Virus record (IMG/VR): IMGVR_UViG_3300032212_000613
Location: 1 to 42,292 of that record
DNA: 42,292 nt
Direction: 5' to 3' (one strand)
Origin: a virus
Taxonomy: Duplodnaviria > Caudoviricetes
A program made the translations under genes and the position numbers. The notes below the pieces were generated by a model, which was not told the origin of the DNA, made no database searches, and saw only the letters and a program-made list of their open reading frames with translations. Below, one piece after another: positions 77 to 42,292 of the stretch. Positions within the stretch are counted from its first letter, which is position 1, and each line of letters begins with the position of its first letter.

Positions 77-153
<77 letters not shown>

Positions 154-981: not shown

Positions 982-1914
982 TTATCCCCTCCATTCAAAC
1001 TGATCGAAGGTATCCCAATCCCGTGGGCCGTCATCTAATGGGGAAGTGGGAGTATCTTCGAACAGTAGGATTGAAATTGACTGTCCAAGCCTGTTGGAAA
1101 ACACGGTCAATTCCTCCACGGGTTCGTTGACGCGTGGAAAACACCATATGCCGTTTGGCAGCTGAATAGCTTTATTAGTCTCGCCATACTGGGCTTCCGG
1201 CCCTTGGCCTGCAATGGACCCGTTAGGGATCGTCATCCCTGATTTGATGAAGACCCCCGTTTTGAGGGCAGCTTGGCTGGCGCGTCCCCACAGAGCATAG
1301 CCGTCTCGGGCCACTACCATGGCAGCCCGCATATGGGTGAAATCGATCCACTTTCGAATGGCTGCGGTCAAAGATACGCCATACCTGTCAGTTATATGGC
1401 CGAGCAGGTCAATCGTAATCTCCTCGCCATCGACCTGTTGGCGATAGTCGTTCATAGGCATCAAAAGATAAGAAGCGAAAGTATCCGCTTCCTCTTCCTG
1501 GATTTGATGACTTTTGCCCCAGAGATTCCTTTCCAATGGTGTGCAGGAAAATTCTTGCTGTGCTTCAGGGGAGATGACTTTGTCCGCAAAGTCAGATGCA
1601 GATAGTGGCTTACGGTGAAGAAGGTAGTGGCCAAATTCATGAGCCAATGTAAACCGTTCACGGCCTGGATATTCTGTATTCGTATTGTGGATGATGTGCC
1701 ATTCGGCTTTTTTCTTATGGTGCCGCAGCATGCCCTCGAAGCCTTCCAAGTCACCGCCGACAACCTTGGTAATAGGATCTTCGTGGTTTTTGGATCTCTC
1801 CATAGCCAATTCCCCAACATCCACTGGGAATCGCTCTTGGCCCAAAACCATGTCGAGCATGTTGGATAAATCGTTGGCAACCTTCGCGGGGGATTTTCCG
1901 ATAGTATCGGTCAT
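982..1914 (-). CDS. ImmA/IrrE family zinc metallopeptidase (CapP-like)
   Basis: R-ERFTLAHEFGH (HExxH), downstream EEEADTFASYLLMP, YGVSLTAA helix motif. Confidence 0.92.
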   Translation of the reverse strand: MTDTIGKSPAKVANDLSNMLDMVLGQERFPVDVGELAMERSKNHEDPITKVVGGDLEGFEGMLRHHKKKAEWHIIHNTNTEYPGRERFTLAHEFGHYLLHRKPLSASDFADKVISPEAQQEFSCTPLERNLWGKSHQIQEEEADTFASYLLMPMNDYRQQVDGEEITIDLLGHITDRYGVSLTAAIRKWIDFTHMRAAMVVARDGYALWGRASQAALKTGVFIKSGMTIPNGSIAGQGPEAQYGETNKAIQLPNGIWCFPRVNEPVEELTVFSNRLGQSISILLFEDTPTSPLDDGPRDWDTFDQFEWRG

Positions 1915-2237
1915 TCATCCTCGTCTTCATCTAGGAGCTCCAGCATTCGCTTGAGCTTTTGTTTTGTCTTGTCCGGCATTCCTCTGTATTTGCGGAAAAA
2001 CTCCTGATCAGACGCATCGATTTCCGACACATTTTCTGAGGCCAGAAGGTATTCCATAGTGGTGTCTAAAGCCTGCGCAATGGCTTGCAATTTTTCTGCC
2101 GACGGGCGAGCAGAGTCTTTGTTTTCAAGCTCCCACATATAACTTTTGCCAGATCCAATCGCTCCAGCAAGCTGTTCAAGAGTCAGCCCTTTTTTCAGGC
2201 GTTGTTCTCGAATCCTCTCTCCGAGTGGCGTAGGCAT
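1911..2237 (-). CDS. XRE-family HTH repressor (CapH/ImmR-like), 108 aa
   Basis: LGERIREQRLKKGLTLEQLA...KSYMWELEN...PSAEKLQAIAQAL; start at 2237 with GGAGGA RBS; 4-nt overlap with the peptidase. Confidence 0.92.
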   Translation of the reverse strand: MPTPLGERIREQRLKKGLTLEQLAGAIGSGKSYMWELENKDSARPSAEKLQAIAQALDTTMEYLLASENVSEIDASDQEFFRKYRGMPDKTKQKLKRMLELLDEDEDE

Positions 2238-2294
2238 TATTCCTCCCATTATTCGCCAAAAACCGTAGGTTCGGTATAGCGTTATTTCTAATCC

Positions 2295-2323
2295 TTGACA
2301 AGCATCACTGTCCGACATAGATT
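2295..2323 (+). promoter_or_regulatory. Sigma70-type promoter of the rightward operon
   Basis: TTGACA (2295-2300), 17-bp spacer, TAGATT (2318-2323). Confidence 0.65.
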
Positions 2324-2406
2324 CGCCAAGGTTCGCTACAGCATTACTTTTGTTGATGTAGTGGCAGAATTTTGTGAAACAAGATTGTTCAATGAAAGGA
2401 ACAAGC

Positions 2407-2676
2407 ATGGCTCGAAAAGAACGAGTAACCCGTGTGATTGATGGTGACACTTTTGAAACCGCCAGCCGTAAACGCCCTATCCGCCTTGCTAATGTGGATG
2501 CTCCGGAAAAGGGAACCCGTGGCGGTGCTGCTGCGACCAAGGCATTGAAATCGATGATTGAGGGAGAAACCGTTTCCGTTGATACGGTCGCTCGCGACGT
2601 CTATGGCCGTTCAGTTGCCAAGGTCAAATTGGGTCGCCGCTCTGTCAACAAGGCGGTCAAAGATCGCCTGAAGTAA
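2407..2676 (+). CDS. Short thermonuclease (SNase-like OB-fold) protein, 89 aa
   Basis: VIDGDT, IRLANVDAPE and RDVYGR motifs; AAAGGA RBS. Confidence 0.85.
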   Translation: MARKERVTRVIDGDTFETASRKRPIRLANVDAPEKGTRGGAAATKALKSMIEGETVSVDTVARDVYGRSVAKVKLGRRSVNKAVKDRLK

Positions 2677-2739
2677 TTCTAGAGGGGCCGATTCTCTAGG
2701 AATCGGGCTCAGTAACATTAAAGGCTAAGGAGATTTAGC

Positions 2740-3912
2740 ATGGCCTCAGTGACGACCTTCATTCGTAACACGCCTGCCTCGTCGCTGCAGGCATATTTTG
2801 AACACACGGGCATTGCACTTTCGAACCCGATTAACTGGGATGGCCCAGAGCCCGAAGTGGTTAAAGGAACACTCCGGGCTGTCGATGACATGACAGACGA
2901 CGAACGCGCCCGTGTCCTCAATGATGCTGAGCGTGTTAGCGCCTTGGCAGATGACGCTGGGCAGACTGCGCTTTACAGTGTCGCCGAAGACCGAACTGTT
3001 TTGGATGATCTGGTCAACGGTCATGCGCGGTCGCTTTGGATGTTCCTGAATGCACCGACCTTGTTTCGCTTTGCCGAAGAGGTGCGTTTCACGGACGAGC
3101 GTCGGCGTGGGCGTAGTTGGGATGGCTTTATGGCTCCCGCCAACCTTGATCTGAACCGTGATGCCGTGGCTCTTGAGGCATTCAAATCAGCTCTGCGGGA
3201 GCGGTTTTCCTCCAATAACATTCACATCGATGTTTTTAGCCGTCATCGCCCTACCTTTGATGGTGAAGACTGTGAATTGGTGCAGATCGTCATCTACCGG
3301 GAGGGGCTTCCCGATGCCTTTTTGGCGTTCGATGATGAAGGTGAATTAGTGCGCCGTGCGCGTCGGCCTGTATTTGAGGCGGCGATGACCTATGAACCGG
3401 AAACTGGCGTAATTGAGGTTGTGGCCAATGACCGCGAAAGCCGCGAAGAAATGGCGCGGTACATGGCGCGTGACCTGCTTGGCGTGGAGTTTCAGAGTGA
3501 GAAGGTTCCGCTTCGGAACTATGACCTATCGGTTCTCTTGGCCCCCCATCCGTTCCAGACGGATCCAGACGACGGGATTGAGTCTGTGGAGGTGAAGCAT
3601 TTGCGTTTGATGCCGTTCGATAACAATGGCGAGCGCGTCACTCTTGAATGCTTGCGCAAAGCGGATCGGACCATCTGGAAAATGTCGGCAGACCGGTTCG
3701 GCGCAAACGACCCTCTGGCTGGCGGCTGGGTAGCAACCCAGGCCAAATTGACCATCAAATTCCATCCTAAGGGTTCGTCAAAACGTGGACGCACTTTGCC
3801 GCTGACGATCACCATGCCGCACGGGTGTAACTTGAAGGATCAAACAGAAGAGGAGCAGTTGATTGGTGAGAGGTATCTGCGCCGTTGGGGCATCTTGAAT
3901 GACGTTGACTAA
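2740..3912 (+). CDS. Hypothetical protein, 390 aa, no recognised domain
   Basis: Long ORF with AAGGAG RBS, overlaps the next gene. Confidence 0.85.
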   Translation: MASVTTFIRNTPASSLQAYFEHTGIALSNPINWDGPEPEVVKGTLRAVDDMTDDERARVLNDAERVSALADDAGQTALYSVAEDRTVLDDLVNGHARSLWMFLNAPTLFRFAEEVRFTDERRRGRSWDGFMAPANLDLNRDAVALEAFKSALRERFSSNNIHIDVFSRHRPTFDGEDCELVQIVIYREGLPDAFLAFDDEGELVRRARRPVFEAAMTYEPETGVIEVVANDRESREEMARYMARDLLGVEFQSEKVPLRNYDLSVLLAPHPFQTDPDDGIESVEVKHLRLMPFDNNGERVTLECLRKADRTIWKMSADRFGANDPLAGGWVATQAKLTIKFHPKGSSKRGRTLPLTITMPHGCNLKDQTEEEQLIGERYLRRWGILNDVD

Positions 3913-4843
3913 TGTGGTGCCGTTTTCCAGGTCAGATGTCCAACTGGTGCAGTCAATCCTGCAGACACCTGATGCGTTGATCACCGGTGTGGCTTTGGAT
4001 GGATTTCATAGTCGTTCGGCAGAAGCGCTGAAGGTATCAGGTGTCTTGCAACCGGACGGGCATCAGCTTGCAGCAGTTTCGCTTTCTGACCATGACGATG
4101 AAGCCATCACTGTAACCTGGTCGCCGGAGGAGGGTGGCTACGGCTATTTCAGTCCGTCTGCCGGATGGGTGGCAGTGCCTTCCGACAGGCTCACATCCTT
4201 TTCGGTCAACTATTCCGTATTGTTTCAGCTTGTGTTGAAGGCTCTGGGTGTTTCGTCACAGAACGATCCGGAAGAATTGGTGCCGGGTCTGGTTTGGGAA
4301 GTAGGGGATGTCCGCTTGCCCGGTCGTGCCAAGCGTATCCCGATCTGGATTGCTCGGCGACTTGCGGTCCCAGCTGTCTGGTCGGCGTTTGCTAATACTG
4401 CGAAGGAGAGACCAGCTCCAGGTTTGCGGGTAGTCATAAATTTGACGGCAGGCCGTGTGAACGAGGCGACTTTCCGTGGCCATGAGATCATCAATCTTCA
4501 TGACGTCATCGGAGCTGGTCTGGAAATAGATCCAGACATTTTGGTAGCTCGAGTTTCTTCTGGAGCCCCGATCTCCGATGCTCCGATCATGGTCAATGCG
4601 GACGGTGCTTCGGTCAATGTTCGGGGCAAAATGTATTCTTTTACCGGTGTGAAACAACGGGCCATCATTCGTCATCTGTACCAGGCATGGCAATCGGGCG
4701 AACCTAAATGCCAGAAGATGGTTGTCTTTGAGGCTGCGGAATGTGGTGCCACGGTGAATACACTCGCAAAAGCCTTCTCTGGGAGGTCAGATTGGCGGGA
4801 GTTTATCCAGGAAAAGGACGGATATTGTTGGATCTCGCTTTGA
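3899..4843 (+). CDS. Hypothetical protein with C-terminal putative winged-helix DNA-binding domain
   Basis: 314 aa; C-terminal beta-strands plus KQRAIIRHLYQAW helix and terminal hairpin resemble OmpR-type wHTH topology (pattern only). Confidence 0.75.
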   Translation: MTLTNVVPFSRSDVQLVQSILQTPDALITGVALDGFHSRSAEALKVSGVLQPDGHQLAAVSLSDHDDEAITVTWSPEEGGYGYFSPSAGWVAVPSDRLTSFSVNYSVLFQLVLKALGVSSQNDPEELVPGLVWEVGDVRLPGRAKRIPIWIARRLAVPAVWSAFANTAKERPAPGLRVVINLTAGRVNEATFRGHEIINLHDVIGAGLEIDPDILVARVSSGAPISDAPIMVNADGASVNVRGKMYSFTGVKQRAIIRHLYQAWQSGEPKCQKMVVFEAAECGATVNTLAKAFSGRSDWREFIQEKDGYCWISL

Positions 4844-4873
4844 GGTGAAAAAATAAATTCTTCAAAAATGATG

Positions 4874-4919
4874 TTGGAGTACTCCGAAAATGGAGTTATA
4901 TTGAATTCAGAAATGGAGG
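4874..4919 (+). promoter_or_regulatory. Promoter/operator of the Xre-RES pair
   Basis: TTGGAG-N17-TATATT overlapped by palindrome GGAGTACTCC (4876-4885) and ACTCC-N6-GGAGT (4881-4896). Confidence 0.55.
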
Positions 4920-4924
4920 TGCAA

Positions 4925-5362
4925 ATGGCTTTCTCTCATGCTTATCCCGCTACTCGGCACCAGATTGCCCCGTTAATCGATTTATCTGATCGAGCTGAAC
5001 GTGATCGTCTGAGCTCCGGAGCTATCCGGGCATTTTTCAATATCATGGAGCAGTGGAAGGTCCGCGATGAAGCGGCCAGGCAATTGCTCGGTGGGGTCTC
5101 CAATGGGGCCTTTTACGCCTTGAAAAAGGGTGGAGATCGCACGTTGGACGAAGACAAGCTGCGCCGAATCTCCTATCTGGTCGGTATCTTCAAAGCTTTA
5201 AACATCATCTATAGCGAGGAGCTTGCCGATAAATGGATGCAGCTTCCCAACAAAAATCGGATCTTTGGCGGGATGACCCCTAAAGACTATTTAGTCCATG
5301 GGGGGCTTCCAGCTTTCGCGACCGTTAGAAAGCTTCTTGATGCTCGGCGGGGTGGCCATTGA
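4925..5362 (+). CDS. Xre/MbcA/ParS-type antitoxin
   Basis: HTH-like N-terminus and WMQLPNKNRIFGGMTP...LLDARRGG toxin-binding motif; GGAGGT RBS. Confidence 0.88.
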   Translation: MAFSHAYPATRHQIAPLIDLSDRAERDRLSSGAIRAFFNIMEQWKVRDEAARQLLGGVSNGAFYALKKGGDRTLDEDKLRRISYLVGIFKALNIIYSEELADKWMQLPNKNRIFGGMTPKDYLVHGGLPAFATVRKLLDARRGGH

Positions 5363-6051
5363 GCTTTCCCGGTACAAGCAGGATCCGCCAACTCGATACT
5401 CATCGGATGATTCCTTCGAAATACAGTGAGAACGGGGACAGTGTCCTCGTTCGCATTGCCGATGATGACGACCACCTCCAGAGCATCTTCGATCTGGATC
5501 ACGCTACAAATGATCGACTACTTGCAGAAAATGATCTGCTTCCCGGAATCGGTGTTGATGAGTTGGTATTCAGTGTTCCGTCTTACCGGATCATCAATGC
5601 AGCATTTACACACGCCCACCCACTGGGAAGCCGGTTTAATGGTCCGGATCGGGGTGCATGGTACGCGGGATTTGAGTTGGAAACATCACAAGCTGAGATC
5701 GCCTGGCACAAGTCGTTAGAACTTGCCGAAGTCGATTGGCTGAATGAAAGCGTCACTTATGATGATTACCTAGCTGACTTCGGCGGTGAATATCATGATA
5801 TCCGAGGAGATGATAGATTTTCCGATTGCCTGAGCGTCGACAGCTATGTTGCATCTCAAGGATTGGCCGATCGGCTTCTCGCTGAAGCTTCCCCAGGCGT
5901 GATATATCCAAGTGTGCGTCATGCCGGTGGCGATTGTCTTGCCTGCTTCCGCCCCGCCCTTGTTGGCAATGTTCGGAAAAGCGCTCGATATCGTTTTACA
6001 TGGACTGGTAAACCCGAGCCCGAAATTGAGCTTGAAGAGTCCTATATCTGA
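5359..6051 (+). CDS. RES-domain toxin (NAD+ phosphorylase family)
   Basis: GSRFN...GAWYAG...AEIAWH...YVASQ...GVIYPSVR motifs (R, E, S); overlaps the antitoxin stop. Confidence 0.9.
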   Translation: MSFPGTSRIRQLDTHRMIPSKYSENGDSVLVRIADDDDHLQSIFDLDHATNDRLLAENDLLPGIGVDELVFSVPSYRIINAAFTHAHPLGSRFNGPDRGAWYAGFELETSQAEIAWHKSLELAEVDWLNESVTYDDYLADFGGEYHDIRGDDRFSDCLSVDSYVASQGLADRLLAEASPGVIYPSVRHAGGDCLACFRPALVGNVRKSARYRFTWTGKPEPEIELEESYI

Positions 6052-6080
6052 CCCGTTGAAAGTCTTTTAAATCATCTATG

Positions 6081-6106
6081 AGCCGTCCCATTGGGGCGGC
6101 TTTTTT
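6081..6106 (+). terminator. Rho-independent terminator
   Basis: AGCCGTCCC-ATT-GGGGCGGCT followed by a T run. Confidence 0.75.
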
Positions 6107-6131: not shown

Positions 6132-6171
6132 CCTACCTTCTGCCCTACCTTCCGCCTCCCCGGCTCCTCCC
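6132..6171 (+). repeat. Four phased CCT(A/C)CC direct repeats upstream of the early operon
   Basis: CCTACC at 6132 and 6144, CCTCCC at 6155 and 6166; spacing 12/11/11 bp. Confidence 0.65.
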
Positions 6172-6225
6172 CCCACAACCGCCATTCTCCTCCCAGGTTT
6201 TCGAACAGCCCCCAAGGAGGACTCC

Positions 6226-6435
6226 ATGGCTATTAAACATCTCAATCAGATCGAATTGGCCGATCGCTGGAATATCAGCGAGCGCACGCTTGAGCGCTGG
6301 CGGTGGACCGGCGAAGGCCCCGCCTATCTCAAAATCGGTGGACGGGTCGTCTACCGGCTCGAAGACGTGGAAGCTTTTGAAGCAGACAACCTCTGCAAAA
6401 GCACCACCGAAACCCCGAACGATCTCTATGCGTAA
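6226..6435 (+). CDS. Excisionase/AlpA-like HTH DNA-binding protein
   Basis: LNQIELADRWNISERTLERWR...GPAYLKIGGRVVYRLEDV; AAGGAGG RBS. Confidence 0.88.
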   Translation: MAIKHLNQIELADRWNISERTLERWRWTGEGPAYLKIGGRVVYRLEDVEAFEADNLCKSTTETPNDLYA

Positions 6436-6445
6436 GGGGGCCGCT

Positions 6446-6934
6446 ATGAATATCCCCAACCGCATTCAAATTGATGATCTGAGCGCCATGGAGGTGGCGG
6501 ACATTGCCTCTCTGCCGGTCGAACAGCTGATCGCATTGCAAGGTGAAATTGCCGAACGCCTCACCATCACAAAGCTGATGAAGGATCGGTTCGACAGTGC
6601 CCTTGAGTGCCGTTTTTCCCTTCAGGCGAGAGAAGCTCGCGCAGCCCAGGGCAAAGACACGGGCACGGTTCGCTTCCATGAAGGTCTGGCGCAGGTCGTT
6701 GCCGATCTTCCCAAAAAGGTTTCCTGGGACCAATCCCAGCTGTCTCAGCTTGTCGAGCGCATGAAGGCCGAGGGCGATGACCCGGCTGAATACGTCGACA
6801 TCACCATCAAGGTTTCCGAACGCAAATACGCCGCATGGCCGAGCCACATCCGCTCGGCGTTTGAGGGCGCAAGGACTGTGCGTGTCGGCAAAGCCTCCTA
6901 CCAACTTTCCCTGAACGATGAGGTGCAATCATGA
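6446..6934 (+). CDS. Phage hypothetical protein (early operon)
   Basis: 162 aa, RBS-like AAGGGGG, ATGA coupling to the next gene. Confidence 0.8.
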   Translation: MNIPNRIQIDDLSAMEVADIASLPVEQLIALQGEIAERLTITKLMKDRFDSALECRFSLQAREARAAQGKDTGTVRFHEGLAQVVADLPKKVSWDQSQLSQLVERMKAEGDDPAEYVDITIKVSERKYAAWPSHIRSAFEGARTVRVGKASYQLSLNDEVQS

Positions 6935-7227
6935 CCGCCAAGACCAAACTCGAACGTCTGCGTGAAGACAACAGCTATCTCGCGGATATTCCCGATACCA
7001 TCCGGATCCCACCTTTGGGCGATCGCCAGGAAGAGGTGATCAAACCCATTGAGGTAGCGTCCATTGATGACATCGCTTTTGCCCAGCTGGCCCTGCAGGC
7101 CAAATCCTCTGCGCTTTACGGAGAAATCGATGCGCTGCGTCGGGTCTACGACATGGCCCGCAAGAACGGATCCTTGGGGGCAGACAATGCCCTTGATGCG
7201 GTGACTTCGAAGAAGGGGGGCAAGTGA
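6931..7227 (+). CDS. Phage hypothetical protein
   Basis: 98 aa, GAGGTG RBS, translationally coupled at both ends. Confidence 0.75.
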   Translation: MTAKTKLERLREDNSYLADIPDTIRIPPLGDRQEEVIKPIEVASIDDIAFAQLALQAKSSALYGEIDALRRVYDMARKNGSLGADNALDAVTSKKGGK

Positions 7228-8108
7228 TGACGCTTCCCATCATTTCCGCCGACGAACGGTTGTCTGAGCAGCGCGGCATTAAAGGCTGCATCTTCGGCAA
7301 ATCCGGTATCGGCAAAACCTCACTGCTTTGGACGTTGGATGCCCAGTCCACCTTGTTCTTTGATTTGGAGGCAGGGGATCTGGCGATCGAAGGTTGGTCA
7401 GGAGATACTATTCGCCCGCGCACCTGGATTGAATGCCGTGATTTCGCGGTCTTCATCGGCGGTCCAAACCCGGCCTTGCGTGACGATCAGGTCTATAGCC
7501 AGGCCCACTATGACGCGGTTTGTGAGCAGTTTGGCGATCCGGCAGCGCTGGATAAGTACCAGACGGTCTTTATCGACAGCATCACGGTTGCGGGACGTCT
7601 GTGTTTCCAATGGGCGAAAGGTCAGCCGCAGGCAATTTCTGAGCGCACCGGCAAGCCGGACATGCGCGGTGCTTATGGGCTCCACGGCCAGGAAATGATC
7701 GCCTGGCTCACGCACCTTCAGCACACTCGTGGCAAGAACGTTTGGTTTGTCGGAATCCTCGACGAGAAGCTTGATGATTTCAATCGTAAGACCTTCGTTC
7801 CCCAAATCGACGGCTCCAAGACCGGCAACGAACTGCCCGGCATCGTCGATGAAGTCATCGCCATGGCCGAAGTCAGCCCGGATGGCACGGATCCCTACAG
7901 AGCTTTTGTTTGCCACACGCTGAACCCGTTTGGCTTTCCCGCAAAGGATCGCAGCGGTCGGCTCGATCAAATCGAAGAACCCCACCTTGGACGTCTGATG
8001 GAAAAGATCAGCGGCCCTGCAAAACCGGCGGGTGAGAGGCTGACCTTTAGTCGCCCAGTACCACCTGCCGAGACCCCCAACCCTGAAGACGACAAAGGAG
8101 CACAGTAA
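7224..8108 (+). CDS. AAA_24 / Sak4-like ATPase (single-strand annealing protein candidate)
   Basis: Walker A GKSGIGKT, DLEAG, Walker B VFIDSIT, AKDRSG motif. Confidence 0.85.
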   Translation: MMTLPIISADERLSEQRGIKGCIFGKSGIGKTSLLWTLDAQSTLFFDLEAGDLAIEGWSGDTIRPRTWIECRDFAVFIGGPNPALRDDQVYSQAHYDAVCEQFGDPAALDKYQTVFIDSITVAGRLCFQWAKGQPQAISERTGKPDMRGAYGLHGQEMIAWLTHLQHTRGKNVWFVGILDEKLDDFNRKTFVPQIDGSKTGNELPGIVDEVIAMAEVSPDGTDPYRAFVCHTLNPFGFPAKDRSGRLDQIEEPHLGRLMEKISGPAKPAGERLTFSRPVPPAETPNPEDDKGAQ

Positions 8109-8110
8109 TT

Positions 8111-8734
8111 ATGACTGGTGCATGGAACGACTATAACGACGCGGAATCCCAAACATCCTACGACCTGATCCCAAAGGGCACCATTGTGCCGGTGCGGATG
8201 ACCATCAAGCCGGGTGGTTATGACGATCCGGCTCAGGGCTGGACAGGTGGATACGCAACCCACAACGATACGACCGGCTCGGTCTATCTGAACGCCGAGT
8301 TTGTTATCCTCGAAGGTCCGTTTGCCAAGCGTAAGGTCTGGAGCCTGATTGGGCTCCGCAGCCTCAAGGGGCCTGAGTGGGGCAACATGGGCCGGTCTTT
8401 TGTGCGCGGTATCCTGAACTCGTCACGAGGCCTTTCCGACAAAGACAATTCCCCGCAGGCGCAGGCTGCTCGCCGTATCAACGGTTTTACGGATCTGGAT
8501 GGCATTGAATTCCTGGCCAAGATTGATGTCGGCAAAGATGCCAATGGCGACCCGAAAAACGATATCCGGTTTGCGGTGGCTCCCAACCATAAGGACTGGG
8601 ATACGTTTAAGTCTGGCGGTGGTCTCTGGATGCCGAGCCAATCGGCTCCTGCCACAACGGCCCAGCCGATGGCCAATGCCAACACAGAAGCGCAACCGGC
8701 TTCAAACCCCAATCGCCCGTCTTGGGCTCAGTAG
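8111..8734 (+). CDS. Putative phage ssDNA-binding protein (DUF669-like)
   Basis: Follows the Sak4-like gene; OB-fold-like core with flexible P/A-rich tail ending RPSWAQ. Confidence 0.6.
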   Translation: MTGAWNDYNDAESQTSYDLIPKGTIVPVRMTIKPGGYDDPAQGWTGGYATHNDTTGSVYLNAEFVILEGPFAKRKVWSLIGLRSLKGPEWGNMGRSFVRGILNSSRGLSDKDNSPQAQAARRINGFTDLDGIEFLAKIDVGKDANGDPKNDIRFAVAPNHKDWDTFKSGGGLWMPSQSAPATTAQPMANANTEAQPASNPNRPSWAQ

Positions 8735-8746
8735 GGGGGGCTGGTC

Positions 8747-10423
8747 ATGTTACTCCGTCCCCGCCAGAAAACCTTCGTCGAGCGCAGTGTTCAAGCGCTC
8801 GGCGAACACGGCAACACACTGGCTGTTGCCTCCACCGGATTTGGTAAAACCATCGCGCTGGCCGGTGTCACCGGTCAGCTGCTGAAAGGCAATGATGCCA
8901 AGGCCTGTGTGCTTGCCCATCGCGATGAGCTGACAAGCCAAAACGAGACAAAGTTCAATCGGGTCAACCCGGGCCTTAGCACCTCGGTCGTCGATGCCAA
9001 GACCAAATCCTGGCAGGGGCGGACCACGTTCGCCATGGTTCCGACCTTGGCGCGTCAATCCAACCTTGCTGCCATGCCCGCACTTGACCTTCTGGTGATT
9101 GACGAAGCCCATCACGCGGCAGCCGACAGTTACCGTCGCATTATCGATCAGGCCAGGGACAAAAACCCGGACGTTAAGATTTTCGGTGTGACGGCTACTC
9201 CCAACCGGGGAGACAAGAAGGGGTTGCGTCCGATCTTTTCCAATGTTGCCGATCAAGTCTTCATTGGAGAATTGGTTGCTTCCGGACATCTGGTGCCGCC
9301 GCGCACCTTCGTGATTGATGTTGGCGCACAGGAAGCACTCAAGTCGGTTCGCAAGACCGTTGACGACTTCGACATGATGGCCGTGGACGCCATTATGAAC
9401 AAAGCGCCGATCACGGATGCTGTGATCCAGCACTGGCGGGAGAAGGCGGGTGATCGTCAAACCGTTGTCTTTTGTTCAACGGTCGATCACGCCCGCAATG
9501 TGCGTGACGCTTTTTGCACCCAAGGTATCCAGGCCGCCATGGTTTATGGCGACATGGGCGCTGCCGACCGGCGCAATGTCCTCCAAGCCTATGAGCGGGG
9601 GGAAACCCAGGTTCTGGTCAATGTCGCGGTGCTGACCGAAGGTTGGGATCATCCGCCGACCAGTTGTGTCGTTCTGTTGAGGCCGTCTTCTTATAAATCC
9701 ACCATGATCCAGATGGTCGGGCGTGGCCTGCGTACCGTTGATCCCAGCGAACATCCGGGCGTGGTCAAAAGCGACTGCATTGTGCTCGATTTTGGCACCT
9801 CCAGTCTTCTGCACGGCAGCCTTGAGCAGGACGTAAATCTTGATGGCAAGGTGGGCTCCGGTCCGGCCTTGACCAAGGAATGCCCAGAGTGTGCAGCCAA
9901 TGTACCGCTGGCCGTCATGGAATGCCCGTTGTGTGGCTACCACTTCCAATCTGAGGGCAAGGAAGGCCAACAGCCGATCTCTGACTTTGTCATGTCGGAA
10001 GTGGATCTGCTCAAACGTTCCAGCTTCCAATGGTGCGATCTCTTTGGCGATGATGCGGCGCTGGTCGCAAATGGCTTCAACGCATGGAGCGGGGTTTTCT
10101 TTCATCAAGGCCGCTGGCATGCCGTCGGCGGTGGCAAGGGCCTCAAATTGCATTTGCTGGCCATGGGTGAGCGCACCATTTGTCTGGCCGCAGCCGATGA
10201 CTGGCTGAATGAAAACGAGACCGATGAAAGCGCCCATAAATCCCGTTCCTGGCTCAATCAGTCCGTCACAACTCGTCAGCTCCAATTCTTGCCGCCCGAA
10301 TACCGTCAGGATTTTGGCCTGACCCGGTATCACGCATCGGCTCTGCTGACATTTCAGTTCAACAAGGCTGCAATCACCAATCTGGTGTTGAACGCCCCTG
10401 AAGATAGCCGGAGGGCGGCATGA
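8747..10423 (+). CDS. SF2 DEAD/DEAH-box helicase with C-terminal Zn finger
   Basis: STGFGKT, IDEAHH, TATP, LTEGWD, QMVGRGLR, CPEC...CPLC. Confidence 0.93.
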   Translation: MLLRPRQKTFVERSVQALGEHGNTLAVASTGFGKTIALAGVTGQLLKGNDAKACVLAHRDELTSQNETKFNRVNPGLSTSVVDAKTKSWQGRTTFAMVPTLARQSNLAAMPALDLLVIDEAHHAAADSYRRIIDQARDKNPDVKIFGVTATPNRGDKKGLRPIFSNVADQVFIGELVASGHLVPPRTFVIDVGAQEALKSVRKTVDDFDMMAVDAIMNKAPITDAVIQHWREKAGDRQTVVFCSTVDHARNVRDAFCTQGIQAAMVYGDMGAADRRNVLQAYERGETQVLVNVAVLTEGWDHPPTSCVVLLRPSSYKSTMIQMVGRGLRTVDPSEHPGVVKSDCIVLDFGTSSLLHGSLEQDVNLDGKVGSGPALTKECPECAANVPLAVMECPLCGYHFQSEGKEGQQPISDFVMSEVDLLKRSSFQWCDLFGDDAALVANGFNAWSGVFFHQGRWHAVGGGKGLKLHLLAMGERTICLAAADDWLNENETDESAHKSRSWLNQSVTTRQLQFLPPEYRQDFGLTRYHASALLTFQFNKAAITNLVLNAPEDSRRAA

Positions 10424-10426
10424 CCC

Positions 10427-10831
10427 ATGGTGACTTCAGCAAACGCTGCCACCCGTTTGAGGTTATGGCATCCGCGCGGGGAACTCTGTGCCGTCTGTCG
10501 GCAACCCACCCGTGGTTTTGGCTGGTTCGACCGCCATTCATCGAAGCGTCCGCGTATTCAGCGGTGGTTCTGCTCCATGGACTGCCAGGGTTTTTGGTCG
10601 CGCTTGGCGAAGGAGGGCTTGGGCATGGTTGATCTGACCGAACAGGAAAAAGCCGCCTTGCGCAATGCCGTCAAAATGCTGGCGGAAGTGATGGAAGAGA
10701 TCGGTTGGGAGACCCGCCTGATAGATCTCACAGAAACCCAGGTTCTCACCCTCGCTGAAGTCTGCGTTGGCGGGTTTCAGGACGCCATGTTGTCGATTGC
10801 CAAAGGCGAGGACACGGAGGTCCCATTTTGA
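10427..10831 (+). CDS. Phage protein with Cys-rich N-terminus (DUF6511-like)
   Basis: CAVC...FCSMDCQ followed by DLTEQE...EVPF. Confidence 0.7.
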   Translation: MVTSANAATRLRLWHPRGELCAVCRQPTRGFGWFDRHSSKRPRIQRWFCSMDCQGFWSRLAKEGLGMVDLTEQEKAALRNAVKMLAEVMEEIGWETRLIDLTETQVLTLAEVCVGGFQDAMLSIAKGEDTEVPF

Positions 10832-11592
10832 TGCTGGACTACAATTCCTCCCAAACATTCGCCGATCAGGTGAACGCTCATATTGATGAGGCTTTGGTCG
10901 CTGAAAACCAATGCCAGACACCACGCCAGTACCTCGGCGGCTCCCGTCTTGGTGTTGCCTGTGAACGCGCTTTGCAATTCGAATACGCCCAGGCCCCGAA
11001 GGACGATGGTCGGGATTTCGATGGGCAAACCCTGCGGATTTTTGCTGCCGGTCACGTCTTTGAGGACCTGGCCATTGATTGGCTGCGCAAGGCTGGCTTC
11101 GAGCTCTATACGACCAAAGGCAATAAGCCCGGTGGAGAGCAATTCGGTTTCAGTGTCGCGGGTGGCCGTATTCGTGGTCATGTGGACGGCATAATCAACG
11201 CAGCCCCAGTCATGGATGGCTTTCCAGCCCTTTGGGAATGCAAATCACTTAATAACAAATCCTGGAACGACACCGCTAAACGCGGGGTCACGGTATCCAA
11301 GCCGGTTTATGCCGCGCAGATCGCCACCTACCAGGCCTATATGGAAGCCTCGGTTCCGGGCATTTCTCAAAACCCGGCACTGTTTACCGCCATCAACAAG
11401 GACACGGCGGAACTTCACCATGAGCTGGTTGCGTTTGATGGCGGACTCGCCCAGCGCATGAGCGATAAAGCGGTGCGCGTCATTCAGGCGACGGAAGCCG
11501 GTGAGTTGCTGCCCCGTATCGCGCAATCGGCTGATTTCTTCGAGTGCAAATTCTGCGACTGGTCTGATCGGTGCTGGAGAACCGGCGGATGA
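10828..11592 (+). CDS. PD-(D/E)XK Cas4-like phage exonuclease
   Basis: C...GHVFE...GHVDG...WECKS...QIATY...CKFC...C. Confidence 0.85.
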   Translation: MMLDYNSSQTFADQVNAHIDEALVAENQCQTPRQYLGGSRLGVACERALQFEYAQAPKDDGRDFDGQTLRIFAAGHVFEDLAIDWLRKAGFELYTTKGNKPGGEQFGFSVAGGRIRGHVDGIINAAPVMDGFPALWECKSLNNKSWNDTAKRGVTVSKPVYAAQIATYQAYMEASVPGISQNPALFTAINKDTAELHHELVAFDGGLAQRMSDKAVRVIQATEAGELLPRIAQSADFFECKFCDWSDRCWRTGG

Positions 11593-13793
11593 GCAATGAG
11601 GTTGTAAACATTAATGATTGGCGCGACTTCAATTCAGCAGCACCTCAGCGCCAAGACGATGCTCGCCAAACAGGGCTCTCGGTTGAAGAGATTAAGGTGC
11701 GCCTCAATGCCAATTTGCGTGGCCTTCTGTCCTACCTCTATCCCGCAGGTGTTTTTCGTCATGGCAAATTCCTGGTTGGTGATGTCCGAGGCAATAAGGG
11801 CGAAAGCTTGAGTGTGGAGCTATCCGGGCCCAAAGCCGGGATGTGGCATGACTTTGCGACAGGTGAGGGCGGTGACGTGCTCGCACTTTGGGCTGCGGCA
11901 ACAGGGCGCAACACCCAATCGGATTTCCCTTTGTTATTGGATGACGTTCGCCAGTGGCTGGGCGAGCCGCGATCTGAAACTGTCCCCGTTGAGCCGGAGC
12001 GTGCCGTGCCGATGGACGAGTTGGGGCCGGTGACAGCCAAGTGGGACTATGTTGATGGCGAGGGCGCTCTGTTGGCCTGTGTCTATCGCTATGACCCGCC
12101 CAGCGGAAAGCAGTTTAGGCCCTGGGACGTTTCATGCCGGAAGATGAAGGCTCCGGATCCGCGACCACTTTATAACCAGCCCGCCATGAAATCCGCCATG
12201 GATGTGGTGGTGGTTGAAGGCGAGAAGGCGGCAGATGCCTTAATCAGCCAGGGCGTTTGTGCCACCACAGCTATGAATGGGGCCAAGGCACCGGTTGAGA
12301 AAACTGACTGGTCACCGCTTTGTGGCAAACGGGTCTTGATCTGGCCCGACAAGGATGCAGCAGGTTGGCAGTACGCGGAATCTGCTGCCGAGGCTGCTCT
12401 TGGTAGTGGTGCCCTTTCCGTCGCTATTCTTATGCCGCCTCTGGATAAACCAGAAAAGTGGGATGCGGCGGACGCTGTCGATGACGGCATGGATATTGAT
12501 GCCTTCATTGCCAACGCACCGCGTCAATCCATCGTAAGCCCTAGGTCCAATGCGCAAGCCTTTAGCCTGAAGCAGTTGCTGGGTGATCGCTCTGCCATGC
12601 CGGACGACATCATTGCGCCTCGTGTCCTGACGCCATCAGGACTGCTGGTTTTCGGCGGTGCGCCCAAGGTTGGTAAAAGTGATTTTTTGCTCTGCTGGCT
12701 AGTTCACATGGCTTCAGGCATTGGGTTTCTGTCCTTTACGCCACCGCGTCCTTTGCGCGTTTTCTATCTGCAGGCCGAAATCCAGTATCACTACCTCCGG
12801 GAACGCCTTCAGGACATCTCATTGCAGCCTGAAGTGATTCGGCACGCCCATGACAATCTCGTCATCACACCGCAGCTCAAGCTCATTTTGAATGAAGCGG
12901 GCGTTGAGACGGTTGGCGCTTTAATCCGAAAACACTTCCCCGATGGGCTGGACATCATCGTCATTGATCCGATCCGAAACGTCTTTGATGGCGGTGAAGC
13001 GGGACCCAGTGAGAATGACAACAACGCCATGCTGTTCTTCTTGCGTGATCGCGTTGAGAAACTTCGAGACGCTGTGGACCCGGACGCTGGCATCATTCTG
13101 GTCCATCACACCCGCAAGCTCTCTAAGAAGCAAGTCGATGAAGACCCGTTCCAGGCACTCTCTGGCGCTGGGTCACTCCGGGGCTACTACAGCTCGGGCA
13201 TGATCCTGTTTCGCCCTGATGAAACGCGCTCTGAACGCAAGCTCATCACGGAACTGCGCAACGGCCCAGCCCTGGCGGCAAAGATCGTCGATAAGGACGG
13301 TGGGCAATGGATCGAAATTGATCCGTCGTCGGAGAGGCTGATTCGTCAGGAATATGGTGAGAAGCTCGATGCCGAACGTCTGCGTAAACGCGATGTCATT
13401 CTTCAGGTTCTCTTCGAAGAAGCGCTGGGCGGACGGGTTTACACTGCGACCCAATTTGCCGAGCGGTTTGAAAACCGGGCTGGTTTGGGTGGCCGGAGCA
13501 CCATTGCCGAGCGTGTCAGTGTTCTGACCACCAAAGGCTACATCAAATATTTCCGCAATCCGGAAGATCACGATCTGCCGCCTCTGCCACGCACTCGCTA
13601 CGGCTATCTCTGTGTTGAAGGCATGCAGCTGGGTGAGGCCGAGGACGTTGTGGATGAGGAAACTGGTGAGGTTTTCCAAAGCGTCCATCAGCTCCTTCCG
13701 ACCCATTACAAGTGCCACCAGTCAGGGGCCGTTCTGGAGGTCGAAAGCCCGCATAATTGGGTCTATCACGATGAGGAGATGGACCATGAATAG
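11589..13793 (+). CDS. Primase-helicase fusion (TOPRIM + RepA/AAA_25 helicase)
   Basis: VVVEGEKAAD and WPDKD TOPRIM motifs, Walker A GAPKVGKS, IIVIDP, LVHHTRK, SGAGS. Confidence 0.88.
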   Translation: MSNEVVNINDWRDFNSAAPQRQDDARQTGLSVEEIKVRLNANLRGLLSYLYPAGVFRHGKFLVGDVRGNKGESLSVELSGPKAGMWHDFATGEGGDVLALWAAATGRNTQSDFPLLLDDVRQWLGEPRSETVPVEPERAVPMDELGPVTAKWDYVDGEGALLACVYRYDPPSGKQFRPWDVSCRKMKAPDPRPLYNQPAMKSAMDVVVVEGEKAADALISQGVCATTAMNGAKAPVEKTDWSPLCGKRVLIWPDKDAAGWQYAESAAEAALGSGALSVAILMPPLDKPEKWDAADAVDDGMDIDAFIANAPRQSIVSPRSNAQAFSLKQLLGDRSAMPDDIIAPRVLTPSGLLVFGGAPKVGKSDFLLCWLVHMASGIGFLSFTPPRPLRVFYLQAEIQYHYLRERLQDISLQPEVIRHAHDNLVITPQLKLILNEAGVETVGALIRKHFPDGLDIIVIDPIRNVFDGGEAGPSENDNNAMLFFLRDRVEKLRDAVDPDAGIILVHHTRKLSKKQVDEDPFQALSGAGSLRGYYSSGMILFRPDETRSERKLITELRNGPALAAKIVDKDGGQWIEIDPSSERLIRQEYGEKLDAERLRKRDVILQVLFEEALGGRVYTATQFAERFENRAGLGGRSTIAERVSVLTTKGYIKYFRNPEDHDLPPLPRTRYGYLCVEGMQLGEAEDVVDEETGEVFQSVHQLLPTHYKCHQSGAVLEVESPHNWVYHDEEMDHE

Positions 13794-39898: not shown

Positions 39899-40198
39899 AT
39901 GACGAAACGATTCACAACAAAAATTGTCGAAGATATTGTCTCTGAAGGAGTCAGTGATCGCGAGATATCCCAACTATTGGATATAGCGGCTTACGCTGTG
40001 GAATCCATTGCTCCTACGCTTGCAAAAACGGCTAGTTTCGATATGTCTGATTTTTCATTGGCAAAACAGCGCGGTGTCATAGGCTATAAGCTGCTCTTAA
40101 CTCGAGAAAAAACAAAGGGGCACGAAAGTTGGATTGCAGCGTTTAAAAGCGGGGACAAAAGTGTAAGGATTATGTTGGTTGTATCAACGCAAGGTTAA
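39899..40198 (+). CDS. Hypothetical protein
   Basis: 99 aa, CAGGT RBS-like site, more AT-rich than the phage core. Confidence 0.55.
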   Translation: MTKRFTTKIVEDIVSEGVSDREISQLLDIAAYAVESIAPTLAKTASFDMSDFSLAKQRGVIGYKLLLTREKTKGHESWIAAFKSGDKSVRIMLVVSTQG

Positions 40199-41133
40199 AA
40201 ATCCGGTGGTAAATCCCAATCCTTAGGACGAGGATCTTCCGTTTGATGGAATTGCCGAACCAGTTTTAGAAATTGAAGGAAATCCTTATTCTCCTCTGTA
40301 AGACGATTGCAGGTTGCCCAGTCTACTTCAAGCCTCTCTCGTGCGGGGATCAATATTTGGCTTTCAGTCGGGTTTTCCGGGTCGATTTGGATCAATCCGA
40401 TGCCATGTAATGAAAAGAGCATTCGTAACTCCTTCAATGTGTCTGTGCCTTCGATCTCTGCGGCTGCAAGATATCCAAAATTTGCCCATGACGAATTTGA
40501 GACTGCCTGAAAAAAAGACTCACGGACGTTAGATCGATTTAGAAGAATTTTTACTTCAAACGACCAGAGCTTGGTTTTCTTATCGGCATATTCTTTGACC
40601 AGATCCTTTACTTCCTGATGCCAGTCGGCTGTCAGGTTCTCCATTCCTACAATGTCGGGGTAAAGCCATTTGTTGCCTTTTGGGCCATGCCTATTAGATG
40701 ATCTCTTTTCATCGATCCGCTTGGAGTAAACACTAAACTCAGACCACAGGTACTCGGAAAGCAAAGGGTATAGATCAGCTTCTTTCAGCGTCCCGCTTCC
40801 GGCTGCTAGGGATTGGGATGTACTTGTTTCTTCCGCCTCAGCAACTTCAGCTTGGTCAGTTTTTTCTGTCCAGTAGTATTGCCGAGGCCGCCCTTCCGTC
40901 GTTTTTAGTTGAGAATCTCGCCGTTGTAACGACGGGCGCTGAGAGGCAATCTCACGAATAATCTGCTGCACGAGGTCGTCATCAGTTTGGATAGATGCGC
41001 TATTTTCTTTCTTTTCCTGACACTCGGCAGGAAAATTCTCAAATACCCACTGAGCTATTTGGCGAGCAGTAAACTTTTGTTCTGCGCGCTCAGATAAAAA
41101 TCCGACAACCGTCTTAGCAAGATTTAGTCCCAT
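40195..41133 (-). CDS. hrgA: HrgA/COG2958-like protein (N-terminal HTH + restriction endonuclease-like domain)
   Basis: EADLYP...IDEKRS...NKWLYPDIVG...SFEVK...FQAVSNSSWANFGYL. Confidence 0.8.
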   Translation of the reverse strand: MGLNLAKTVVGFLSERAEQKFTARQIAQWVFENFPAECQEKKENSASIQTDDDLVQQIIREIASQRPSLQRRDSQLKTTEGRPRQYYWTEKTDQAEVAEAEETSTSQSLAAGSGTLKEADLYPLLSEYLWSEFSVYSKRIDEKRSSNRHGPKGNKWLYPDIVGMENLTADWHQEVKDLVKEYADKKTKLWSFEVKILLNRSNVRESFFQAVSNSSWANFGYLAAAEIEGTDTLKELRMLFSLHGIGLIQIDPENPTESQILIPARERLEVDWATCNRLTEENKDFLQFLKLVRQFHQTEDPRPKDWDLPPDF

Positions 41134-41149
41134 AGTATTTTCAATTCCC

Positions 41150-42292
41150 TCAATTTGGCCCGGTCGCTGAATGGTTCTCTGATTTTACACCAGCTTTGGT
41201 GTTCCCAGTTTCTTTTGAGGAACCTCCCAGCTGGTCATAAATCTGACTGCCCAGCCACTTTGAAACCAGCTCCTGTAAGTCGGGTTTGCTCATGTAGTCG
41301 GTAAACAACTCCTCGTTTAGCTCCATGCGTTCGATGAAAAGAGATTCAAGAACTTCGCTAAAAACCAGCTGAAATTTGTCGAGAGAATTTACCTCTGCAG
41401 CCCTGCGTAAGGTCTCATTTTGGCTAGCTGCTTCAGCAATTTGGTCAAAGAAAAGCTGGTCCGCTTCCGTCAGTTCGCCGCCAAAACGTTCATTGATAAG
41501 GTCGACCAGTCGGGACAATGGAACGTCTTCATCTCTTGCCATCCCCGTGCCGACCTCTCGTGGTCCGTCGAGCGGCGTAGCCTGACCTTCTTGTAATTTT
41601 ATGGACCCCTCACTTATCTTTTGCAGACGGTAGTAATCCAGTTCAACCTCTTCGTCGAATTGGTAACCTGGGCCGTTTGGTCGTTTGGGTAGTTTCAACG
41701 CCAGGTGTCGTAGGTAGGTAAACAGTTTCTCCAGATCACTATCCTGATACGGGATTACCTGACTCAAGAAGCTGTAAAGATTGCGAAAAGCCTGAGTTTT
41801 GCCGCGCCACAACTCGCTTTCTTCTTCGTCATTGTTTTGCATATCTGCAAAACGCGCCACAGCCTGATCAAGAATGGCGTTCATATTCTTATGGTCAGTT
41901 GGACTCTGACGACGTTTGGGAGCGAAGAAAATTTGAACGAACGCATCCACCTCTGTTTCCAGGTATATTCCCGAAGCGTCCAACTCGGCCTTGATCTCGT
42001 AAAGCCGATCTGAATCGACTTCTTCACCCATCACCGAACCTTCATAATACTGTCGGAATGCCTCCTGAATCTCGTCAGGGTCGTTTACGAAATCCAGAAC
42101 AAAGGTGTCGTCCTTCAGCGGATGTGTTCGGTTGAGGCGTGACAAGGTCTGCACGGCTTGAATTCCCGCCAGTCGTTTGTCGACATACATGGTATGCAAT
42201 AAGGGTTGATCAAAACCAGTTTGGTATTTTTCCGCCACCAGCAGCACACGGTACTCTGGCTTGGCAAAAGTCTCCGGCAATTCTTTCTCTTT
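41150..42292 (-). CDS. hsdR: Type I restriction enzyme R subunit, C-terminal part (5' end outside window)
   Basis: LLVAEKYQTGFDQPLLHTMYVDK...AVQTLSRLNR...FVLDFVN. Confidence 0.92.
   Translation of the reverse strand, partial: KEKELPETFAKPEYRVLLVAEKYQTGFDQPLLHTMYVDKRLAGIQAVQTLSRLNRTHPLKDDTFVLDFVNDPDEIQEAFRQYYEGSVMGEEVDSDRLYEIKAELDASGIYLETEVDAFVQIFFAPKRRQSPTDHKNMNAILDQAVARFADMQNNDEEESELWRGKTQAFRNLYSFLSQVIPYQDSDLEKLFTYLRHLALKLPKRPNGPGYQFDEEVELDYYRLQKISEGSIKLQEGQATPLDGPREVGTGMARDEDVPLSRLVDLINERFGGELTEADQLFFDQIAEAASQNETLRRAAEVNSLDKFQLVFSEVLESLFIERMELNEELFTDYMSKPDLQELVSKWLGSQIYDQLGGSSKETGNTKAGVKSENHSATGPN

Follow-up and report, generated by a model that had tools for sequence, protein, structure and literature searches.

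The window analysed here is the whole 42,292-base virus record IMGVR_UViG_3300032212_000613 of IMG/VR, estimated to be 72% complete. Close to its start it carries a CapH/CapP repressor-peptidase pair transcribed divergently from two overlapping genes, which encode proteins of 390 and 314 amino acids (aa), here called A and B. We propose, with a probability of about 0.72, that this locus is a two-step prophage induction switch in which CapP would cut CapH, A and B would then be made, and B would activate the phage early operon. An original prediction, made from the sequence without database searches, had left two readings side by side, a stress-induced abortive-infection system and a two-step lytic switch with the SetR-SetCD logic. 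Gene context and a co-varying repeat promoter argue for the lytic switch, and the defence branch was not borne out; the five open reading frames (ORFs) it had listed were confirmed in position and length (Table 1). The window encodes the early, head, tail and lysis functions of a phage with a long tail and is likely a prophage, because its nearest relatives sit in Thalassospira and related alphaproteobacterial genomes.

The promoter of the early operon is central to this proposal. Four tandem boxes stand between a terminator-like hairpin and the first early gene, followed by a -10-like hexamer that lacks a canonical -35. The original prediction had missed both this arrangement and the Xre/RES gene pair that follows B on the same strand. 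The array is the only one with four boxes on either strand of the window, and 5 of 500 shuffled sequences scored equally high. For comparison we used loci carrying A: 103 were available from genomes and 101 from viruses, and the best 80 of each were taken. Counting only promoters with a box 55-64 nucleotides (nt) before the start codon, 79 of 85 distinct cases had the pattern nAnnnT starting 17 nt after the start of the last box, and no other distance between 8 and 27 nt was seen in more than 3. A period of 11 was the best in 80 of 148 distinct upstream regions (ties included), and a loose pattern of a GC run plus a T run, counted without a chance control, preceded the early operon in 71 of 110 loci. 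The boxes are predicted to be B sites placed over the -35 position. In two loci, L228 and L210, repeats read by eye remain at the promoter of the HTH_17 gene though A and B lie elsewhere, which linkage alone does not predict.

The type of box tracks the predicted recognition helix of B better than it tracks A or the adjacent gene. Box cores fall into several classes (CCTACC, CCTCCC, TTCTC(C/T)C, TGAGGAA, CCTCAG and CCTAA) that follow the C-terminal helix of B. A class could be assigned in 140 of 148 loci, and nearest-neighbour prediction recovered it correctly in 137 of the 140 from B residues 284-297 and in 133 from the B C-terminal domain, compared with 107 from A and 90 from HTH_17. Removing near copies left B with 130-137 correct, against 75-82 for A and 45-58 for HTH_17. 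Loci L002-L004 are instructive: their A proteins are 98-99% and their HTH_17 proteins 99-100% identical to those of the window, whereas the C terminus of B is only 26-27% identical and the boxes have changed. At least two CCTACC boxes were present in 47 of the 52 loci whose B has N287 and in none of the 96 without it, and the score of independent pairs was 12:0 with 4 ties when the A tree was used and 6:0 with 3 ties when the tree was built from the N-terminal part of B.

Gene order also sets A and B apart from their neighbours. Wherever 1 kb or more of downstream sequence was available, B followed A (151 of 151 loci); the two genes overlap by 14 nt in the window, and they are fused in L207 (745 aa) and in Gp6 of phage AcaML1 (751 aa). 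Where at least 6 kb downstream was available, the HTH_17 gene of the early operon lay beyond A/B in 114 of 114 loci and a further early gene in 109, and in distant relatives the pair is still flanked by a serine recombinase on one side and by the early operon on the other. The flanking slots vary. Across 141 loci, the first slot held a DUF2188 gene in 103, an SNase gene in 7 and nothing recognised in 31 (ORF clusters c4, c20 and c29, considered as separate genes, were read as other frames over DUF2188), and the slot after B held RES in 7 of 160 loci, with AbiEi/AbiEii or nothing in others. Because the order of A and B is constant and both slots vary, the three-gene operon of the original prediction is not one unit: its A/B part is fixed, but the nuclease does not belong to it. 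The mini-SNase and Xre/RES genes are likely passengers of two cargo slots.

Structure predictions and the co-variation with the boxes suggest that B is a sequence-specific activator. OmpR-family effector domains filled the match list of its residues 223-314 (Z 5-6.8; root-mean-square deviation (rmsd) 3.2 over 83 residues), and Trans_reg_C was an ESM Atlas neighbour (score 0.88). The winged helix that had been claimed for this protein is present, but at both ends, around a middle α/β domain, rather than as a single winged helix-turn-helix (wHTH). Pfam gave no receiver domain in B, and structural matches cover the effector domain only. No catalytic acid set is conserved in the middle domain across 147 aligned rows, in which W133, G136 and R153 were best kept; a dead restriction-nuclease fold was considered for it, but the matches were weak and mixed (Can2 E 0.11, Cdn1 Z 5.5, XPB Z 6.2), and this assignment is not made.

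A is predicted to adopt a fold like that of RdgC, CENP-N, YejK and RexA. Foldseek matches ranged from E 1e-4 to 2e-2 (CENP-N 1e-4, RdgC 1.7e-3, and also RexA, YejK and phage RdgC) and structural scores reached Z 8.1 for CENP-N (rmsd 5.3, 165 residues), 6.8 for YejK and 5.3 for RdgC, at 7-15% identity. A is likely a co-activator or DNA clamp. Pfam, NCBIfam and the PADLOC 2.0 library (dated 2023) gave no match for A or B, PADLOC applied to 90 diverse A homologues returned nothing but one stray match, and a search of Protein Data Bank (PDB) sequences with a diverse A profile yielded noise only. Literature searches, whose coverage excluded most subscription journals, found no paper on the A/B pair, and the available parts of PMC3826726 and PMC5567305 contain nothing on it. 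The two proteins, which had been taken as uncharacterised, match no named family tested, with middling fold likenesses, and probably represent a new activator family.

Judged by its sequence, the pair upstream is a genuine CapH/CapP with a cysteine switch, as had been suggested from its XRE and ImmA/IrrE character. The two genes match the capH and capP models, and CapP has the motif HEFGH (H92, E93 and H96) together with E140, so that the zinc ligands (HExxH plus E) and the switch cysteine are all present: C124, noted earlier between HExxH and the third-ligand glutamate, aligns with switch cysteine C113 of Thauera CapP (PDB 7T5T). The known systems, described here and below from the available parts of the cited papers, likewise combine a divergent XRE repressor with an M78 peptidase that single-stranded DNA (ssDNA) activates and that has a cysteine switch, and DNA-binding and catalytic residues are retained in the window pair (10.1101/2022.04.27.489752; PMC13228613). 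They differ in that the window operon is a phage core module and not a cyclic-oligonucleotide-based anti-phage signalling system (CBASS), and in a 15-residue insertion in the switch loop of the window CapP. Of the CapH residues reported by Lau et al. (10.1101/2022.04.27.489752), S32 and R44 are retained and R40 is replaced by K; F81-R82, which resembles F82|R83, is a candidate cleavage site, although this likeness is suggestive only. No S24 (CI/LexA) peptidase was detected in the 72% complete record and CapH accounted for all HTH_3 matches, in keeping with the earlier remark that no CI/Cro was visible.

The promoter predicted earlier for A and B is present between the divergent genes. Taken alone it is within chance, with 3 promoter-like sites against 5.4 expected in shuffles, but TTGACA recurs in 88 of 96 distinct homologous regions. 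A GTTC half-site occurs at the position of the upstream repeat in 86 of 88 homologous promoters with TTGACA and, again in 86 of 88, at that of the downstream repeat, and a GTTCG-N5-8-CGAAC palindrome is complete in 80 of 96 homologous regions and degenerate in the window. The repeats may be CapH operators, with CapH binding there suggestive only. Searches for host SOS boxes upstream of A gave four scattered matches in 54 loci.

Following what is known of the family, DNA damage would generate ssDNA, which would activate CapP and lead to cleavage of CapH. Loss of CapH would allow the promoter at 2295-2323 to fire, and A and B would be made; B, likely helped by A, would bind the four boxes at 6132-6171 and switch on the early operon. 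B would read the boxes head-to-tail in the manner of an OmpR/PhoB effector domain and recruit sigma-70 polymerase where a -35 is missing. Between the end of the Pho boxes and the -10 lie about 10 nt. These boxes are 11-nt direct repeats on which a winged helix binds head-to-tail and contacts sigma-70 (PMC4415409). The likeness to PhoB/OmpR lies in the C-terminal winged helix of B and in the 11-12 bp spacing of the boxes; B differs in having no receiver-domain match, in having an N-terminal wHTH and an α/β domain instead, and in always having a partner gene.

The order of events would resemble that of SetR-SetCD in the SXT/R391 integrative and conjugative elements, and of AcaCD, in which a damage-cleaved repressor controls a two-gene activator (PMC4344509), but with unrelated proteins. 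SetCD sites sit at the -35 position of promoters without a canonical -35, including the xis promoter (PMC4344509), and the window has the same geometry in its sequence: a predicted site at -35 without a canonical -35, and candidate activator genes under a repressor of the damage-cleaved type. SetCD and AcaCD are FlhCD-like and use one 19-bp site (PMC4344509), whereas A/B would act at four 11-bp repeats. Pfam matched neither FlhC nor FlhD in A or B, neither was among the listed fold matches, and the predicted folds point elsewhere.

The sensor upstream of A/B is interchangeable. An XRE and M78 peptidase pair preceded A in 119 of 122 loci with room for one, comprising 93 divergent CapH/CapP pairs and 26 co-directional pairs. 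In further distant loci, where the scan covered 69 of 100 candidate ORFs and passed over small ones and near-duplicates, a LexA-like S24 repressor held the sensor place in 9, a fused XRE-M78 protein in 2 of those scanned and a WYL protein in 1, and several loci had no known sensor there. The CapH/CapP, ImmR/ImmA-like, LexA-like and WYL families are known DNA-damage sensors.

Several observations count against a lytic switch built on B and its boxes. The compared loci were not dereplicated and are non-independent samples. Only 80 of the 148 upstream regions beat all 20 of their shuffles, and the remaining 68 fail; the A-B fusion phage AcaML1 has no clear 11-bp array (33 of 100 shuffles). A second set was selected by AAA_24 (the best 80 of 359 loci, plus AcaML1), of which 32 had at least 4.5 kb upstream: A or B lay upstream in 17, on the other strand in 4 and nowhere in the fetched DNA in 11, and arrays were clear in only 9 of the 17 loci bearing A/B and in 0 of 4 without. 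The module is common, not universal, among related phage loci. A also occurs outside phage early regions, on a plasmid and on integrase elements without early genes (L161, L209, L212, L214 and L238). Box classes and residue N287 were picked after inspection of the data, and we rejected a single-residue code at N287 as unproven: other B columns score equally high, and L228 has CCTACC boxes and no N287. Co-variation is in any case not proof of binding, because B and the boxes are linked and could be swapped as one block. The fold scores, at most Z 8.1 for A and 6.8 for B, are middling and fall in what the tool calls the "common arrangement" range.

Other explanations account for parts of these data. 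We regard it as very unlikely that A/B is a damage-induced abortive-infection system, with a ring sensor and an effector like GAPS4 or RexAB and an added SNase or DUF2188, even though CapH/CapP regulates CBASS and other defence operons and the cargo slots of the element hold genuine defence genes. The same inventory has been assigned to defence: the 'DUF2188 + hypothetical protein' operon of Extensimonas perlucida, with CapP, CapH, DUF2188 and two hypothetical proteins as in 103 of 141 relatives here, is listed as a likely defence system in the Fig. 6F legend of Lau et al. (10.1101/2022.04.27.489752), and in the material available its two hypothetical proteins are not confirmed as A and B. GAPS4 also consists of two genes, sometimes fused, and its GAPS4b, in models a ring on DNA that carries a docking domain of helices, acts with a partner (PMC13748975); GAPS4b_N was an ESM Atlas neighbour of A, at a weak score of 0.78 in the chance range. 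In GAPS4, however, GAPS4a comes first and has an active N-terminal HGxD-SxK nuclease (PMC13748975), whereas B ends in an OmpR-type wHTH, begins with another and conserves no HGxD-SxK motif. The PADLOC results, the exchangeable nuclease in just 7 of 141 loci and the lack of a conserved catalytic acid set in B all speak against a defence system, and a defence function would leave the fixed position, the box array and the co-variation with B unexplained. In contrast, the switch is the likelier reading because A/B is likely an activator of replication genes through the four repeats.

It is also unlikely, if less so, that B binds the boxes without activating, and serves there as a repressor or, with the boxes acting like iterons, in initiation or excision. 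Co-variation indicates binding at most, the gene after the boxes is excisionase-like, and tandem winged-helix proteins on direct repeats also serve as replication initiators. But a -10-like hexamer at a fixed distance, with no canonical -35, is the geometry of SetCD-activated promoters; a repressor that CapH keeps off would be unable to hold lysogeny; and the phage encodes its own primase-helicase. A comparably low probability attaches to the idea that B activates alone and that A works apart from it as a non-specific DNA ring, keeping B inhibited until damage is sensed, blocking RecA in the manner of RdgC or stabilising the lytic state as RexA does. RdgC, RexA and Chl4 form one fold group, in which RdgC dampens RecA activity and RexA, a prophage protein favouring the lytic state, biases the lambda switch to lysis (PMC11077077), and the two-domain ring predicted for A resembles RdgC, lambda RexA, CENP-N/Chl4 and YejK. 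In addition, A informs box type poorly and some loci have no known sensor upstream of it. RexA differs in that its partner RexB is a membrane protein, whereas B is a soluble DNA-binding protein, and strict pairing, gene overlap and two fusions argue that A and B are one functional unit. Provided that B activates, we lean slightly towards A being a dimeric ring on DNA that stands in for a receiver domain by clamping B or making it multimerise.

A broader reading, which we hold tentatively and at a little under even odds, is that A/B represents a new class of heteromeric activator, an RdgC/CENP-N-like ring with an OmpR-type reader, in which the recognition helix and the four-box target change specificity in concert. 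It would act as the master switch to lysis in a prophage family that is widespread but almost uncultured, and take its signal from any of four interchangeable damage sensors; some published candidate defence operons with CapH/CapP and DUF2188 would be prophage switches, and the cassette could be co-opted for defence operons, as in L161. If the proposed switch is right, it would explain induction in a large group of prophages without CI/Cro and bring the RdgC/CENP-N fold into transcription activation; it would also warn that prophage switches may be misfiled as defence systems through guilt by association with CapH/CapP. The predicted protein-site pairs allow a direct test of the claim. At 50% identity the A family comprises 1,600 representatives, with members named from Pseudomonas, Stenotrophomonas, Burkholderia and Methylococcus, all annotated as hypothetical; within one phylum, 37 of 401 sampled genomes carried A, among them the one on which the search was centred. 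A tblastn search with A and B against 50,697 phage records gave no matches, which reflects a sensitivity limit because profiles later found the AcaML1 fusion.

Table 1. Features of the window around the proposed switch (coordinates in the 42,292-base record)
Feature	Position	Strand	Basis or remark
tRNA-Met(CAT)	77..153	+	starts the record; tRNA-Met also upstream in 5 of 9 close relatives examined
ORF, 236 aa	271..981	-	adjoins the capP stop; cargo slot; no family match; carries cysteine pairs
CapP, 310 aa, Zn metallopeptidase, cysteine switch	982..1914	-	PADLOC capP E 9.6e-64; PDB 7T5T E 2.5e-48
CapH, XRE repressor, 108 aa from its ATG	1911..2237	-	PADLOC capH E 8.9e-29; PDB 7T5U E 6.5e-17
Putative CapH operator 1	2267..2287	+	upstream of the -35; 21-nt direct repeat, 81% alike
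Sigma-70-type promoter of the A/B operon	2295..2323	+	TTGACA-N17-TAGATT; of 96 distinct homologous intergenic regions at capH, 88 have TTGACA
Putative CapH operator 2	2329..2349	+	over the predicted transcription start; second copy of the 21-nt repeat
Mini SNase-fold nuclease, 89 aa	2407..2676	+	PF00565 E 6.5e-8; exchangeable first gene
Protein A, 390 aa	2740..3912	+	helical N-terminal domain plus two α/β domains; AlphaFold2 (AF2) confidence (pLDDT) 87; PHROG 37634, unknown function
Protein B, 314 aa	3899..4843	+	N-terminal wHTH, middle α/β domain, C-terminal OmpR/PhoB-type wHTH (residues 228-314); AF2 pLDDT 85.8
Xre/MbcA antitoxin and RES toxin	4868..6051	+	cargo between B and the early promoter
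Terminator-like hairpin, intrinsic	6080..6102	+	between the A/B and early operons; sequence scan
Four tandem boxes	6132..6171	+	CCTACC x2, CCTCCC x2; starts 6132, 6144, 6155, 6166; spacing 11-12 bp; predicted B sites
-10-like hexamer CATTCT	6183..6188	+	17 nt after the last box start; no canonical -35
HTH_17 excisionase-like gene	6226..6435	+	first of the early operon; PF12728 E 2e-10; phrog_66
Early recombination/replication operon	6446..13793	+	Sak4-like AAA_24, helicase, DUF6511, Cas4-like nuclease, primase-helicase; family and PHROG matches

The tRNA gene that opens the record is likely the host integration site; the recombinase found in relatives is absent from this 72% complete record. 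SNase and DUF2188 exchange with each other in the first slot, and so both may be damage-induced accessory effectors. The mini-SNase retains its catalytic motifs, with DGDT, RL, VDxPE and YGR aligning with thermonuclease; it has neither the C-terminal helices nor a signal peptide, and its short length recurs in relatives. In relatives, the slot behind capP that contains the 236-aa ORF here is filled by McrBC, GmrSD, Abi_C or UvrD genes. At the far end of the window, past the lysis genes, positions 40195-42292 carry on the minus strand a 312-aa gene without a family match, along with a type I HsdR of which the C-terminal part is present.

Relatives of the locus vary in what surrounds A and B. 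On plasmid CP013100.1 (L161:7989-12670), A and B are followed by CACACC-type repeats, the hexamer CATAAT and then a multi-ubiquitin/JAB/ThiF operon, with no phage genes; the activator cassette may drive this ubiquitin-like defence operon. In AcaML1 (L325:3281-5536, JX507079.1) the fused Gp6 lies behind an HTH_17 and PIN pair, divergent from the early operon. A Ralstonia prophage (L162:3450-7334) has a type II CBASS (patatin, CD-NTase, E2/E1) divergent from A, with no capH/capP detected. In L214 and L238, CapH/CapP and a truncated A precede umuDC-like genes; these are decayed elements in which a mutagenic polymerase appears to be under the control of the sensor. In L217, L219 and L220 a sigma-70 region 2 protein is encoded between very distant A homologues and the early genes that come after them, perhaps a variant with its own sigma factor.

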